This document shows, piece after piece, positions 466 through 5,430 of a DNA stretch of 64,000 nt. How positions within the stretch are numbered: the first letter of the stretch is position 1; each line of letters opens with the position of its first letter. Under the pieces are notes generated by a model that made no database searches, was not told where the DNA came from, and was given only the letters and a program-made list of their open reading frames with translations. Made by a program: the position numbers and the translations under genes. Source of the stretch: Bdellovibrionales bacterium (GTDB lineage Bacteria; Bdellovibrionota; Bdellovibrionia; Bdellovibrionales; UBA1609); NCBI GenBank assembly GCA_027317865.1, contig DAHVQG010000001.1, positions 224,001 to 288,000 of the forward strand. Reading direction: 5' to 3'.

Positions 466-1206
466 ATGAGAAGAATCGTAACCTCCTTATTTTTGTGGTT
501 GGGCGCCGTTTTCTTGCTGAATTCTTTAACTTCAACTGCATTTGCTCGCGGCCAATACGCGGGCCGAAGGGGCATAACGTCGTCCAATAGAATTTGGCTG
601 GATGGCGGGTTAGACTTCGGAGTTTGGATGAAAAACCCGGGCGTGGTTCATACGCTCGAAAATATCCCGGGTCTTGTGCATCACCATCGAGTGCGACTCA
701 TCGAGGGGTGGAAAATGGGTATGGAGCTGGCGAAGCTACACCCCAATCTTGAGGCGATGTATGCTAAAAGATTTGGTACTGTCGAAAAAAAACTCGAGGA
801 CGATACAGCAACGGCCTACGATCATTTATTACCGAAAAATGAAGTTGCCAAAGGGCTTGAGAAAAATCATGTGCAGGTGAATGAAAATTATGTCGGCTAT
901 TTGCCTCGCACCACTTACCTTTTAAAGGACCCGTACATTTATGACGGCGTTTTGACGTTCACGGTTTCGAGCGTTTGCGTGAAAGGTTCGCAATTTGTGC
1001 CGACTAACCCTTATCTCGCGCCAAACGTTCTCGGCATCCCACCATGCCAGGGCGGCAAAGTTTACTCAGTATATAAAATTGCGCACGTTCATTACGACCC
1101 GTATTGCGTTGATGCTTACGGTTATCGAACTTATTGTACATCACCGGATGAACTAAAAAAGCCAATCTGGATCGATACTATTTATACAGGCGCCGAATCC
1201 GACTGA
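466..1206 (+). CDS. Secreted hypothetical protein
   Basis: 246 aa ORF; signal peptide ending AFA; four C-terminal Cys; no recognised family. Confidence 0.6.
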   Translation: MRRIVTSLFLWLGAVFLLNSLTSTAFARGQYAGRRGITSSNRIWLDGGLDFGVWMKNPGVVHTLENIPGLVHHHRVRLIEGWKMGMELAKLHPNLEAMYAKRFGTVEKKLEDDTATAYDHLLPKNEVAKGLEKNHVQVNENYVGYLPRTTYLLKDPYIYDGVLTFTVSSVCVKGSQFVPTNPYLAPNVLGIPPCQGGKVYSVYKIAHVHYDPYCVDAYGYRTYCTSPDELKKPIWIDTIYTGAESD

Positions 1207-1239
1207 ATTCGACCCACCACAACTGACCGCCAACTTGCG

Positions 1240-1548
1240 CTACTTTACCATCTCTTTAAGTTCGCCGGACTGGTACATCTCCATCATGATATCGCTGCCG
1301 CCTACCAATTCTTTATTTACGTACAGTTGCGGAATGGTCGGCCAGTTACCGAATTCTTTTATCCCCTGACGAATTTCTTCGTCGTCGAGCACGTTAACGC
1401 TTTGAAATTGTGCGCCGAGTTCTTGCAGTATGGCGACCGCTCGAGCTGAAAATCCGCACTGCGGAAAGGCCGGCGTACCTTTCATAAATAATACAATGTG
1501 GTTTGCGGATAAGATCGACTCAATTTTTGATTTTGTGCTGACTTCCAT
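1240..1548 (-). CDS. grxD: Grx4-family monothiol glutaredoxin
   Basis: FMKGTP..PQCGFS, WPTIPQLYV and GGSDI motifs; GGGAGA RBS upstream. Confidence 0.95.
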   Translation of the reverse strand: MEVSTKSKIESILSANHIVLFMKGTPAFPQCGFSARAVAILQELGAQFQSVNVLDDEEIRQGIKEFGNWPTIPQLYVNKELVGGSDIMMEMYQSGELKEMVK

Positions 1549-1604
1549 TTTTAAATTCTCCCATGTAAAGTCTTGAGTTTTCGACTCAAGGTAAATTGTT
1601 AAAA

Positions 1605-1760
1605 AATAACAGATGACTATTAACCTCCCATTCGAGGTCTTCGTCTTTCGACTGAAGCCCCACCATTCCGGTTCAATAACAAGCGGCCCAATCTCCTTAA
1701 GCGGTCATAGTGACCAGATTTTAATTGCGGGCTTACCTGCTAAACTTGACCATCTGTGTG
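1605..1760 (-). ncRNA. Predicted bridge/seek RNA of the IS
   Basis: Closing stem ACAGATG/CATCTGT (1609-1615, 1751-1757) encloses two stem-internal loop-hairpin modules whose loop strands match the target and donor flanks. Confidence 0.75.
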
Positions 1761-1800
1761 AACTTCAATCTTTTTCTGTTCTTCATTCCTTTCAAAAAAA

Positions 1801-2829
1801 CTATGCTGCTTTTAATAGCGAGGGCTTATATACGCTCTCGCTCTTCCAAACAGCATAAACTACAGTCAGAAGTTTACGGCTAAGCGCGATTAACGCTCGC
1901 TTTTTGCCGCGTCTTCGTTCAATTCGATTAAAAAATTCTTGCAGCGGCCGCGCCGACGCTGTCTTCATTCGCACCACAGCATGGGCGCATTGTATGAGTG
2001 CTCGCCGCATCTCTTTGCGGCCGGCCCTGGTTACTGAGCCCATTCGACATTCGTCGCCACTTTGGTAAATCGTTGGCGTCAATGCACCGTAATTTGCAAC
2101 GGCTTTGCTATTTTCAAAACGATCCGCGTCAGCAATGGCACCAAAAAGTATTCGTGACGTCAGCTTGCCAATTCCTGGGATGGTCTCTATCCGCTCAATC
2201 ACCACGTCTTCAATCGTCATGATTTCGTTGGCAATTGATTTTTCGCTCTCAACCAGACATTCAATTGCGTGCATAAAGCCGGCAACAATGGCTTCAGTTG
2301 AAGACGATAATTTCATTTCGCAAAGTTGTACCTGCCAATCGTTGGCTTTAAAAAATGCCAACGGCAATTTTTGACCTTCTTGGCGCAAAAATCCACGAAG
2401 CGAGTTCATAAGCGATACACGCTTTCGAAGTAACGTCTCTCGCGCATTTGTAAGTTCGCGTAAAGTTCTCGTTTTACCTTCAGCCATGTGAACTTTGCGC
2501 GGCAACATATCGGCACGCGCGAGCTCTGCCAGTTTCTTGGCGTCAACTTGATCCGTCTTTTTACCACCGCTTTCGGCAATCCATTTCACTTCGTTAGGGT
2601 GAACGATATGAATGTCTTCACCAAGCTTTTTGAAATAATCGGCAATCCACTTCATTTGATTCCCAGCCTCGAATACAAAAAGCTTCGATTCGATGCCAAA
2701 AATGGCGATTAGGTCGCGAATGCCCTTCTTCGTCGGACTAACTGAACCTTTAAATAAAACTTTTTTCTTGTCGTTAAGCGCGTGAACGACAAAATCCTTG
2801 CCTGAGATATCCATTCCTACGTAAATCAT
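1801..2829 (-). CDS. IS110-family DEDD recombinase/transposase
   Basis: YVGMDIS, VFEAG, KKTDQVDA (DEDD intact), IPGIG, GALTP..YQSG (catalytic Ser); ATG at 2829 with AGGGG RBS; frame stays open upstream to GTG 2967. Confidence 0.95.
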   Translation of the reverse strand: MIYVGMDISGKDFVVHALNDKKKVLFKGSVSPTKKGIRDLIAIFGIESKLFVFEAGNQMKWIADYFKKLGEDIHIVHPNEVKWIAESGGKKTDQVDAKKLAELARADMLPRKVHMAEGKTRTLRELTNARETLLRKRVSLMNSLRGFLRQEGQKLPLAFFKANDWQVQLCEMKLSSSTEAIVAGFMHAIECLVESEKSIANEIMTIEDVVIERIETIPGIGKLTSRILFGAIADADRFENSKAVANYGALTPTIYQSGDECRMGSVTRAGRKEMRRALIQCAHAVVRMKTASARPLQEFFNRIERRRGKKRALIALSRKLLTVVYAVWKSESVYKPSLLKAA

Positions 2830-3032
2830 TTTTGACCCCTTTGGTTTGTTGTTGGTAAACAACCAAGAGTCGAAAACGCGACTTAACGTCAACTTTAGAC
2901 TCACGGGGTCTTTTCTTTTTTCAGAGCTGGCCGATCGAAAATCGGCAGCAAAAAGACTTTGCGTCACTTTGCACCACCTTTCTTCGTCTCATAGCTCATG
3001 GAATCTCCTTTAGAATCGTTAATTCGATTTAT

Positions 3033-3263
3033 TTATTTTTTCAACAGGGTTTTAATTTGTAGCGCATGAACTTCGCCGGATTTGAATTCTGAAGAAAATA
3101 AATCCATTATCATCTTGTGCTGTTCGATTCGCGTTTTGTTTAGAAATGAACGCGATGAAACACGCACGTCAAAATGATCATTCGTCCCGGTTGTGTCGAT
3201 CACGGCCACGTCGCAATCGGCCAATGCGGTTTTGATTCGTTTTTCAATTTGTTCAGCCGTCAT
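3033..3263 (-). CDS. bolA: BolA family protein
   Basis: DHFDVRVSS..F..KTRIEQHKMI..EVHALQIKT; start MTAEQI; classic partner of grxD. Confidence 0.9.
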   Translation of the reverse strand: MTAEQIEKRIKTALADCDVAVIDTTGTNDHFDVRVSSRSFLNKTRIEQHKMIMDLFSSEFKSGEVHALQIKTLLKK

Positions 3264-3331
3264 GACTGACCCATATAGCATGCGGGTGAGGTCTATACAG
3301 TTTTGACAAATTGTGTTATGTTGATAAATCC

Positions 3332-3664
3332 ATGCACGAACCGTTAACTGATCCCCAAATTTTGTACTTTTCACCCGCTGACGAAACGCACGTCAGGCGA
3401 GAAAAGGCGCGCGCGCGTGAACTGCGGCAGTCGCAGTGGTGGCGTAACCAAATCGGCCGGGGAGTTTGCCACTACTGTGGAAATAAGTTCGAAAAGGCGC
3501 AATTGACGATGGATCACGTCGTGCCGATTGTTCGCGGCGGCCGTTCGACAAAAGCAAATGTCGTGGTGGCTTGCAAAGAATGTAATTCGCATAAAAAATA
3601 TTGGACTCCAGTGGAACTGGAGCTCATGTCGCGGAACTCCGTCTTGGAGACGGAGAAAAATTAA
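3332..3664 (+). CDS. HNH endonuclease
   Basis: CHYCG, LTMDHVVP..RGG..N.VVACKECN. Confidence 0.9.
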   Translation: MHEPLTDPQILYFSPADETHVRREKARARELRQSQWWRNQIGRGVCHYCGNKFEKAQLTMDHVVPIVRGGRSTKANVVVACKECNSHKKYWTPVELELMSRNSVLETEKN

Positions 3665-3720: not shown

Positions 3721-5430
3721 ATGACAACAAAGCTAACTCAACATAGTACGGCGGAGTATTTCGCAAAAAATCTTCAACAGGTGGGTTTTTCGTCACCGGT
3801 CAAGGCGGTTTTAACGACGCTGAAAGAAGCCGTCGATAATTCGCTTGATGCTTGCGAAGACGCGGCTATCTTGCCCGAGCTTGAAGTAATTATTCGCAAA
3901 ATCGGTCAAGGCTCGGCTCGGAATACCGAGCTTGTTGAAGTCATTGTTGATGATAACGGTCCCGGCATTGATGCGGACGATCTGCCTAGCGTATTCGGCG
4001 AATATTTGTCGTCTTCAAAATTCGGCCGAGGGCGTTGTTCGCGCGGTCAGCAAGGTATTGGGATTTCAGCCGCTACAACCTGGGCCCAGCTCACTAATGC
4101 CGCAGGCGTTCGCGTGATCAGCAAAACAAAAAACATGCGAAAGGCGATAAAAGAGCAAATCGACGTCGATATTAAAGCCAACAAAGGGCTTGTGAAAAAT
4201 AAAGAGACCATTGATTGGGATCGTCCGCATGGGACACGTGTAGAGTTTCGAATCGATGGTCGCGTACAACTTAACGGCGATGGCGGGCTTTTGACTTATC
4301 TCGAAGGCACAACCCTTGTGAACCCGCATATGACGTTAAAATATAAACTTCTTGATAATGATCCTGTTGAAGTGATTCGTGTGAGTAATGCGGTGCCTGA
4401 AGTTCCGCCGCCCACGCTCCCGCATCCGCACACGATGAAACTCGGTGAGTTTATGACTCACGCCCACCTTTACGGTAAAGTGACGCTCGATAATTTTTTA
4501 CGCAAGGGCTTTTCGCGAGTTGCCGATGAAGCGATCAAGGGTTTCGTCAAAAACGGTTTGCCGAAATCATTTTTAAGTAAACCTGTAACGGGTTTGTCAG
4601 AAGCCGATTATAAAACCGCGTTTCAGGCTATTCAGGCAAGCGAGTTGCAGAATCCGTCGACTCGATCGGTAATGATTGTCGGTGAAGAAGCGCTGTCTAA
4701 GAGTATTCAACGTTTGGGCGAAATTGATTTCTTTTCAGTGGTGACCCGCAAACCGCGAATTTGTGACTACAAGCCCGTCGCAGTCGAAGTGGCGATTGCG
4801 CGATTTGTAAAGAAAGTAAATTTGGGGGACGAAACCGATCCTATTCAGCTTTTGCGATTTGCCAATCGTGTGCCTTTGCAGTTCGACAAAGCCGCCTGCG
4901 CCATAACCCAAGCAGTTGAATCGGTGAATTGGCGCGCTTACGGTCTTCAACAGTCAAAGAGTAATTTGCCTTTGGGGCCATACGTTTTTGCGATCAGCGT
5001 TGTCTCACCCTTTATAAAATTCAAAAACGCTTCAAAAGAAACCATCGACGCAAGCGATGAGTTGGTTGAAGAAATTCGCCGCGCGCTCATGCAGGCGGGG
5101 CAAAAATTATCGCGTCACATTAAACGCGAGGTGCGCGCCGCCGACCTGGAACGCAAGCTTCAGCACATTGAAAAATTCGGTCCCATTTTGGTGGAGGCAC
5201 TCGGTAAAATCGTGAACGCACCCAAAGCGAGAATCAAGCGGGCCGAAGAGGGCCTTGCGAAGCTCTTGGGACGCGACGGACGTGAAGCCGAAAAAGAATT
5301 GGCCGAAGCCGAAACCCAATTAGAAAAAGTGAAAGCCAAGCAAGAAGCAGTCGTCAGAGAAGGGGCCAGCGGATCTACTGACGAGACCAAAGAACCACTT
5401 AAAGCGAATCAATCCGAAACGAAAGAGTGA
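3721..5430 (+). CDS. top6B: DNA topoisomerase VI subunit B
   Basis: GHKL motifs KEAVDNSLDA, DDNGPGI, SRGQQGIGISAA; transducer motifs RFANRVPL and FKNASKETI. Confidence 0.95.
   Translation: MTTKLTQHSTAEYFAKNLQQVGFSSPVKAVLTTLKEAVDNSLDACEDAAILPELEVIIRKIGQGSARNTELVEVIVDDNGPGIDADDLPSVFGEYLSSSKFGRGRCSRGQQGIGISAATTWAQLTNAAGVRVISKTKNMRKAIKEQIDVDIKANKGLVKNKETIDWDRPHGTRVEFRIDGRVQLNGDGGLLTYLEGTTLVNPHMTLKYKLLDNDPVEVIRVSNAVPEVPPPTLPHPHTMKLGEFMTHAHLYGKVTLDNFLRKGFSRVADEAIKGFVKNGLPKSFLSKPVTGLSEADYKTAFQAIQASELQNPSTRSVMIVGEEALSKSIQRLGEIDFFSVVTRKPRICDYKPVAVEVAIARFVKKVNLGDETDPIQLLRFANRVPLQFDKAACAITQAVESVNWRAYGLQQSKSNLPLGPYVFAISVVSPFIKFKNASKETIDASDELVEEIRRALMQAGQKLSRHIKREVRAADLERKLQHIEKFGPILVEALGKIVNAPKARIKRAEEGLAKLLGRDGREAEKELAEAETQLEKVKAKQEAVVREGASGSTDETKEPLKANQSETKE

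Follow-up and report, generated by a model that had tools for sequence, protein, structure and literature searches.

An insertion between bolA and grxD

We analyzed a 64,000-nucleotide (nt) stretch of the genome of a Bdellovibrionales bacterium (contig DAHVQG010000001.1 of assembly GCA_027317865.1), called the window below. At the locus studied, an insertion sequence (IS) separates bolA from a grxD-like monothiol glutaredoxin gene; the two form an operon-like pair and were neighbors in 20 of the 25 other genomes searched. The element has landed on the Shine-Dalgarno (SD) sequence of grxD. Downstream of its transposase gene lies an RNA with two internal loops, of the kind called seekRNA or bridge RNA, one loop of which spells the core of an SD sequence (Table 1). 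We argue that this RNA probably guides the element to SD sequences.

Table 1. Features of the bolA-grxD locus, in window coordinates
Feature	Positions	Strand	Evidence or remark
Insertion sequence	1558..3004	minus	1447 base pairs (bp), the shared GGAG core being counted once; IS110 family, IS1111-type layout; junctions read, ends homologous in 20+ relatives, start of X4 contig
DEDD transposase/recombinase gene, 342 amino acids	1801..2829	minus	Pfam DEDD_Tnp_IS110 and Transposase_20; NCBIfam NF033542
seekRNA/bridge RNA, two internal loops, 3' of the transposase gene	1614..1743	minus	RNAalifold on 17 relatives
Target loop, 5' strand CAATTAAAATCT	1716..1727	minus	complementary to target top strand, AG followed by ATTTTAATTG (right target guide); in the clade, covariation with the right flanks
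Target loop, 3' strand GCTTAAGGAGAT	1691..1702	minus	same sense as left target CTAAAGGAG; its closing AT fits the start of the left end as well
Donor loop, 5' strand GGAATGGT	1662..1669	minus	GGAAT complementary to left end ATTCC
Donor loop, 3' strand GAATGGGA(GG)	1626..1633	minus	same sense as right end CATGGGAG
Right terminal GGGAG	1558..1562	minus	with flank base A (1557) gives GGGAGA 8 nt before grxD ATG
Original host SD AAAGGAG	3005..3011	minus	found at the left junction since the insertion, 5 nt ahead of an element ATG; the match of the X4 and X5 contigs stops at 3011
Putative leader mini open reading frame, 11 codons	2964..2999	minus	ATG 5 nt after host GGAG; TGA overlaps GTG (2967-2965) opening a 46-codon in-frame extension of the transposase frame
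GACCCC box	2905..2910	minus	complementary to transposase SD GGGGTC (2839-2834)
grxD-like gene, monothiol glutaredoxin, whose SD was hit	1240..1548	minus	Pfam Glutaredoxin, E 7e-22; relatives align from residue 1
bolA, upstream gene of the pair	3033..3263	minus	Pfam BolA, E 8.2e-14

The transposase carries a DEDD RuvC-like domain (PF01548, E 2.3e-20) followed by a Tnp domain (PF02371, E 2.5e-21), and the NCBIfam model 'IS110 family RNA-guided transposase' scored 223 bits against a cut-off of 140. The match to the IS621 transposase (PDB 8WT6) was weak (E 1e-16), with 48.8 of its 64 bits coming from the C-terminal domain. Among the plasmids searched, the best protein match to a plasmid-borne IS110-family gene reached 31% identity.

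Read on the minus strand, the left junction passes from ...CGATTCTAAAGGAG to ATTCCATGAGC..., with GGAG at 3008-3005, and the right junction from ...CTTTACATGGGAG to AATTTAAAAATG, ahead of the grxD ATG at 1548-1546. The pentamer GGAGA (TCTCC on the plus strand) is repeated at 1557-1561 and 3004-3008; the A that follows GGAG on both sides extends the shared core by coincidence. An earlier sequence-only reading had placed the element at 1549-3012, a span that takes in a few flank bases. As in other members of the IS110 family, a short core, here GGAG, flanks the element on both sides; this holds for the window copy and for every relative with its ends present. There are no terminal inverted repeats and no true target duplication. 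When the element was excised in silico, the joined flanks read AAAGGAGAATTTAAAAATG, which confirmed the earlier claim that its removal leaves a near-ideal ribosome-binding site (RBS) before grxD. It had also been claimed that grxD keeps an RBS after the insertion and, at the sequence level, this was borne out: GGGAGA now precedes the ATG at a distance of 8 nt, the same spacing as before. We infer that grxD expression may persist. A scan of 1200-3450 for promoter and terminator consensus sequences gave 0 promoter-like sites, and in the right end its minus-strand results were not decisive.

Three independent supports back the element boundaries: the ends of the relatives, a contig from sequencing run X4, and the adjacency of bolA and grxD elsewhere. 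We took as relatives all loci returned by our scan with a transposase at least 39% identical (range, 39-74%). In all of those with ends in the contig, the conserved ends AT[AT]C[CT]ATGA... and ...CAT(G)GGAG begin or stop exactly at GGAG, all right ends being CAT(G)GGAG or a close variant. In run X4, a 3435-nt contig begins at 1558, matches the window through 3011, that is, the element plus AAAGGAG, and is then unlike the window; in run X5, from another study, a contig stops matching at the same base. The copy seen in these two runs carries 4 differences (2443 C>T, 2536 C>T, 2596 A>C, and 2737 A>G). The closest species that has both genes is G006, where GrxD is 83% identical; its spacer closes with GAAGGAGATCTAAAAAATG, again in GGAGA-8-ATG geometry, but this is a different species and cannot place the boundary to the base. 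The check for an empty bolA-grxD site came out in favor of the sequence-only reading, in that the related species has the geometry expected. In four sequencing runs, no same-strain empty allele was found and no contig bridged the empty site. The empty site is reconstructed, not observed.

The host genome (G000; 99% complete, 42 contigs) holds one copy of the element. The sole other trace of such an element in it is L002 (G000:C42:5315-5386), where 70 nt remain from the 5' end of a related transposase gene; this remnant is 78% identical at the DNA level and ends in a stop.

A two-loop RNA downstream of the transposase gene

Within the 240-nt region 3' of the transposase gene, a 130-nt segment takes a fold with an outer stem plus two internal loops that each end in a hairpin. 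On the 17 aligned relatives, RNAalifold gave 22 consensus pairs, 10 of which showed compensatory changes. The covariance model R1 scored 78.5 bits at the window RNA, which was itself part of the seed alignment. An Rfam search of 1200-3400, with E up to 1, returned no family.

The target loop can be summarized as CTTAAGGAG / AGATTTTAATTG, and its two strands jointly specify approximately CTTAAGGAGATTTTAATTG. This agrees with the earlier observation that the guide RNA encodes an SD core and a spacer. The GGAG of the loop was invariant in 17/17 aligned RNAs. In the donor loop, GAATGGGAGG has the same sense as the right end CATGGGAG, and in the relative L049, the loop (ATAGGAG) and the right end (CATAGGAG) share one change. 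A structured RNA with a target and a donor internal loop, whose strands match the flanks and the element ends, is characteristic of the IS110 family.

Within this family, several traits are those of the IS1111 subgroup. The RNA (1743-1614) lies downstream of the transposase stop (1801), on the side where more non-coding sequence is found (240 nt on the right vs 175 nt on the left in the window, 219-296 vs 88-115 in relatives), and within the RNA, the stretch complementary to the top strand comes first (5'), ahead of its bottom-strand counterpart. Position and strand order fit IS1111. Subterminal inverted repeats of 7-15 bp were found in 15 of the 17 relatives measured, 14 of these 15 leaving a 10-bp spacer in the joined ends; the repeat of the window copy is shorter (5 bp). 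In the sections cited, IS1111 subterminal inverted repeats are given as usually 11-13 bp (PMC11187229) or 7-17 bp (PMC11208160), and the asymmetric end extensions as 7 + 3, summing to about 10 bp (PMC11187229).

A two-loop RNA was also matched upstream of the transposase gene in three more distant elements, with transposases 26-28% identical (L080, 156-273; L082, 762-875; L084, 755-869). These covariance-model matches were weak (21-24 bits), and the RNAs have no GGAG and different loop sequences. Related scaffolds thus occur on either side of the gene, and the GGAG of the target loop is not forced by the scaffold. Given these upstream RNAs, the clade may lie near the boundary between the subgroups.

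Most relatives lie at Shine-Dalgarno sequences

The relatives came from related genomes (L004, which is the same locus as L048, and L012), species genomes (L048-L053), and metagenomes (L058-L072), and one was found via the covariance model (L074). A truncated copy without ends (L005, in G014) and the right end of L067, a false pattern match, were left out. The record titles of these relatives point to several distant lineages. The clade is nevertheless rare, with one query detecting it in 2 of 401 genomes of the phylum, G000 included. The sequence-only reading had expected an SD consensus to offer many available sites; no matching abundance was seen, either in these counts or in the single copy of the host genome.

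Wherever the contig includes the left end, GGAG closes the flank and AT[AT]C[CT]ATGA follows at once. We then counted the copies with a right flank of at least 70 nt (n=18), accepting open reading frames (ORFs) that had 30 codons or more or that were still open where the contig stops. In 16 of the 18, an ATG opening an ORF in the direction of the transposase lay 5-9 nt past the flank-side GGAG: 5 nt (five loci), 6 nt (eight loci), and 7, 8, and 9 nt (one locus each), never 4 nt. The prediction that other copies would be flanked by an AAGGAG-like sequence shortly before a start codon held for these same copies. The two exceptions were L053, with a 77-nt flank and a possible GTG start 25 nt away, and L066, which lies in AT-rich non-coding DNA. 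None of the 18 copies was inside a recognizable gene. By eye, the base before GGAG was A in 18/22 loci, and the first base after it was G in 16/18 and A in 2/18.

Six of the 14 downstream ORFs scanned passed Pfam cut-offs, namely a short-chain dehydrogenase, an IS110-family transposase, a peroxidase, a DUF1329 protein, a monomeric isocitrate dehydrogenase, and RadC. In four of these six (the short-chain dehydrogenase, the IS110 transposase, the isocitrate dehydrogenase, and RadC), the alignment began at position 1 of the profile. One metagenome-assembled genome holds three copies (L050-L052) at the SD sequences of three different genes. One of these copies, L051, sits at the SD of another IS110-family transposase gene (2808-3146; PF01548, E 3.6e-11).

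As a baseline, we scored motifs of G000 as being in start context when ATG, GTG, or TTG lay 3-10 nt away and opened an ORF of at least 60 codons, a criterion similar but not identical to that applied to the loci, and drawn from one genome. On this measure, 12.5% of GGAG, 18.1% of GGAGG, 30.7% of AAGGAG, and 45.8% of AAGGAGG sites were in start context, against 7-10% for unrelated 4- and 6-mers. The probability of at least 15 of 17 copies in start context, the count before L074 was added, was 7e-10 at a rate of 18% and 4e-4 at 46%. Backed by these independent copies, the insertion at SD sequences is confirmed as a real phenomenon.

The guide covaries with the insertion sites

Each 5' strand of the target loop was aligned to its own right flank with AG as the anchor, and the targets were then shuffled among elements. 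At the first flank base (r0), guide and target matched in 17/17 elements vs a permuted mean of 13.5 (P 0.007), and the two elements with guide A had target A. At r1-r6 in register, 47/102 positions matched vs 31.7 when permuted (P 0.0003). When the register was moved by 1 to 3 positions in either direction, P was at least 0.055. We also scored sites over 5 bases to the left and 8 to the right of GGAG. The occupied site scored 10/13 against its own guide, a score reached by only 6 of 11,900 other GGAG sites in G000. From the covariation and the site scoring, we therefore conclude that the RNA reads the last bases of the SD together with the first ones of the spacer.

The part of the SD that lies 5' of GGAG behaved differently. 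The window's own guide matches its flank there at 4/5 positions, but in the clade the guide base 5' of GGAG agreed, by eye, with the flank in only 5/20 loci. The A-rich part of the SD is thus not encoded by the guide in most members, and the SD context probably reflects in part which insertions survived. The earlier view that the guides program SD targeting therefore stands for GGAG[G/A] and the next bases, and not, clade-wide, for the A-rich bases. Collectively, these data suggest a guide-encoded preference for GGAG[G/A] and a few bases, sharpened by the loss of harmful insertions, two contributions that are inseparable here.

A model for insertion, and its rivals

The explanation that best accounts for the whole, and one that we hold to be likely, is that of an RNA-guided IS110-family element with IS1111 layout that inserts at the SD core. 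It builds on the observed anatomy, on the complementarity and covariation between guide and flank, and on the SD context of 16/18 copies. The DEDD recombinase would employ the RNA encoded 3' of its gene. The donor loop would recognize the joined ends of the element, CATGGGAG followed by ATTCC, and the target loop would recognize GGAG on one strand and AG plus about 4-7 next bases on the other, that is, the SD core and the start of the spacer. Recombination would take place within or just after the GGAG common to the donor (CATGGGAG followed by AT...) and the target (..AGGAG followed by G...). Strand pairing, a circular intermediate, and the chemistry are modeled by analogy with IS621 and ISEc11.

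Because the exchange would occur in the shared GGAG, both junctions would keep GGAG, as they do in every copy seen. The host gene would retain an SD at unchanged spacing, and the original host SD would end up 5 nt before the ATG of the left end. The sequence-only reading had described this as an IS that regenerates the RBS it hits. The retention of GGAG at both junctions stands, but it follows automatically from the shared core. RBS retention is a built-in outcome of recombination at such a core; it may be an adaptation in favor of the host gene or a by-product. The guide GGAG[G/A] is constant across the clade and the following bases vary by element; each element would thus prefer a particular SD and spacer, and often land on partial matches. 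Selection against intragenic insertions probably sharpens the SD pattern.

Several observations weigh against this explanation. Guide-flank matches are partial, and L052, L053, L065, and L068 match little past GGAGG; the low agreement 5' of GGAG reported above counts on the same side. In the covariation test, related elements were treated as independent. The 28 sites of G000 that fit the guide best include only 9 in start context, and L066, the copy that best matches its own guide, is one of the two without a nearby start. No transposition, circle junction, or RNA was observed, the search for circle junctions covering the four sequencing runs. Last, the subterminal inverted repeat of the window copy, CCATG, is only 5 bp long, and that of L048 6 bp; with so short a repeat, the window copy may be poorly mobile.

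A possibility was that the guide supplies a short GGAG(G) core or nothing, and that the location at gene starts stems mainly from purifying selection against intragenic insertions or from a cue other than RNA. The baseline speaks for it, since just 12.5-18% of GGAG and GGAGG sites in G000 are in start context, and so does the finding that about a third of the best guide matches are in start context while 0/18 copies lie inside a recognizable gene; the A-rich stretch that most guides leave unmatched points the same way. Such a scheme is, however, hard to reconcile with variable guide bases that covary with the right flank in one register alone, with an r0 at which A or G follows the guide in every element, and with an occupied site that ranks in the top 7 of about 11,900 GGAG sites for its own guide. 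We judge it quite unlikely. Far less probable still is a reading of the start codon by the conserved CAT/TAT with which the target loop opens on its 5' side, so that SD and ATG would be recognized as a unit. The loop strand is indeed [CT]ATNNNCCTT in most members, which would specify AAGG-NNN-ATG, and an ATG is nearly always near the targets. Yet the supported register demands an ATG 4 nt after GGAG, a distance never seen among the observed 5-9 nt, and the shifted registers carry no cognate-specific signal. A guide reading the ATG itself was rejected on register.

The last alternative concerns the window copy, which might be a stranded relic that is no longer mobile and whose complementarity records a past event. 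It is single in its genome, its inverted repeat is short, and its sister element L048 has lost a G in the right end. On the other side, the transposase frame is intact, all RNA helices are kept, and a copy with 4 differences sits in another context in runs X4 and X5. A relic is thus doubtful in our eyes, though it is the most credible of these alternatives. RNA-guided insertion at the SD core is the explanation retained below.

The left end captures the host Shine-Dalgarno sequence

The left ends of the window, L012, L048-L053, and L058-L072 all place an ATG 5 nt after GGAG (23/23), and in 21/23 this ATG opens a leader ORF of 6-11 codons, commonly MKKPP.... The GGAG before the leader is supplied by the host when the element is integrated, and would come from the right end once the ends are joined. 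The window copy and L048 have a GTG that overlaps the leader TGA and from which the transposase is extended in frame, by 46 and 61 codons, respectively.

Most members have a leader that passes over a C-rich box; this box is complementary to the SD of the transposase gene, and box and SD change together across relatives (GCCCCC/GGGGGC, GGCCCC/GGGGCC, and GACCCC/GGGGTC). Fold-back of the box onto this SD could mask the transposase RBS. In a helix search, cognate helices were barely longer than non-cognate ones (mean 6.7 bp vs 6.3 bp), and RNAalifold on 18 left ends, the middle of which aligns poorly, returned no consensus structure.

These features raise the idea that the recombination core doubles as an RBS for the element, the captured host SD driving, unmasking, or coupling into translation of the transposase. 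We offer it tentatively and think it unlikely. The leader ATG also falls within the subterminal inverted repeat, and this by itself could account for its conservation. If the idea were true, the amount of transposase made would be linked to how strongly the host gene is expressed, and to that gene the right end gives a replacement SD. The hed ORF of IS900 would borrow host signals. In the section of PMC8141618 cited here, it is described on the strand opposite the IS900 transposase, without an RBS and a start codon of its own.

Joined ends would also form promoter-like hexamers, as judged by eye: TTTACA-17-TATGAG in the window (1564-1569 and 2988-2993, minus strand) and TTGACT-17-GATACT in joined ends of the L050 type. 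Promoters at circle junctions have been reported for ISEc11 and IS621.

On its other side, bolA adjoins a small HNH endonuclease gene (3311-3664, plus strand) and a topoisomerase VI subunit B-like gene (3721-5430, plus strand; Topo-VIb_trans, E 4.4e-45). Topoisomerase VI is uncommon in bacteria.

Relation to known systems

The sequence-only reading had presented insertion at SD sequences as a new safe-harbor strategy. It is not new in principle, as SD insertion is already known for the IS110 family, and the interpretation is right in substance. In the passage cited (PMC2942039), IS900 and IS901 are reported, from Doran 1997 and Inglis et al. 2003, to insert between the SD and the start codon. 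These two elements of Mycobacterium avium resemble the present one in their orientation-specific insertion between an SD-like sequence and a start codon, as seen here in one orientation in 16/18 copies. The likeness drawn here is one of target behavior. The IS900 target motif, given as CATGNNNNNNTCTCCTT across 58 copies in the section cited of PMC8141618, has AAGGAGA-N6-CATG as its reverse complement. A motif on the IS900 strand would imply a transposase running opposite to the target gene, whereas here the transposase runs with it.

With ISEc11, ISKpn4, and ISPa11, IS1111-family elements that use a seekRNA (Siddiquee et al. 2024, PMC11187229), the element shares a longer non-coding region and an RNA 3' of the transposase gene, and a top-strand match 5' of the bottom-strand match, the two overlapping in the target. 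The 10 bp between subterminal repeats in the joined ends of the clade equal the 7 + 3 reported for them. Their targets, in contrast, are element-specific and none is described as an SD in the parts of that paper cited, and the inverted repeat of the window is just 5 bp. The bridge RNA system of IS621 (Durrant et al. 2024, PMC11208160; PDB 8WT6) likewise has a two-loop RNA with left and right guides for target and donor, core included, and a recombinase with DEDD and Tnp domains. According to the sections cited, the RNA of IS621 is encoded 5' of the gene and both of its loops have their strands in the opposite order, whereas here it lies 3' of the gene. We found no literature linking seekRNA or bridge RNA guides to an SD target, or an IS1111-type clade with an SD habit, although the target logos of PMC11187229 and the supplementary tables of PMC11208160 may contain cases.

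In an IS1111-type clade, the SD core is written in the guide. This links the insertion of IS900 and IS901 at start signals, on record for roughly thirty years, with the RNA-guided target choice of IS110 and IS1111 elements. The clade offers a natural case of how short, partly matched guides yield useful specificity, one that allows guide-encoded preference to be separated from the survival of harmless insertions. Such elements split operons without removing the downstream RBS, and annotation should therefore not assume that the genes downstream of them are dead.

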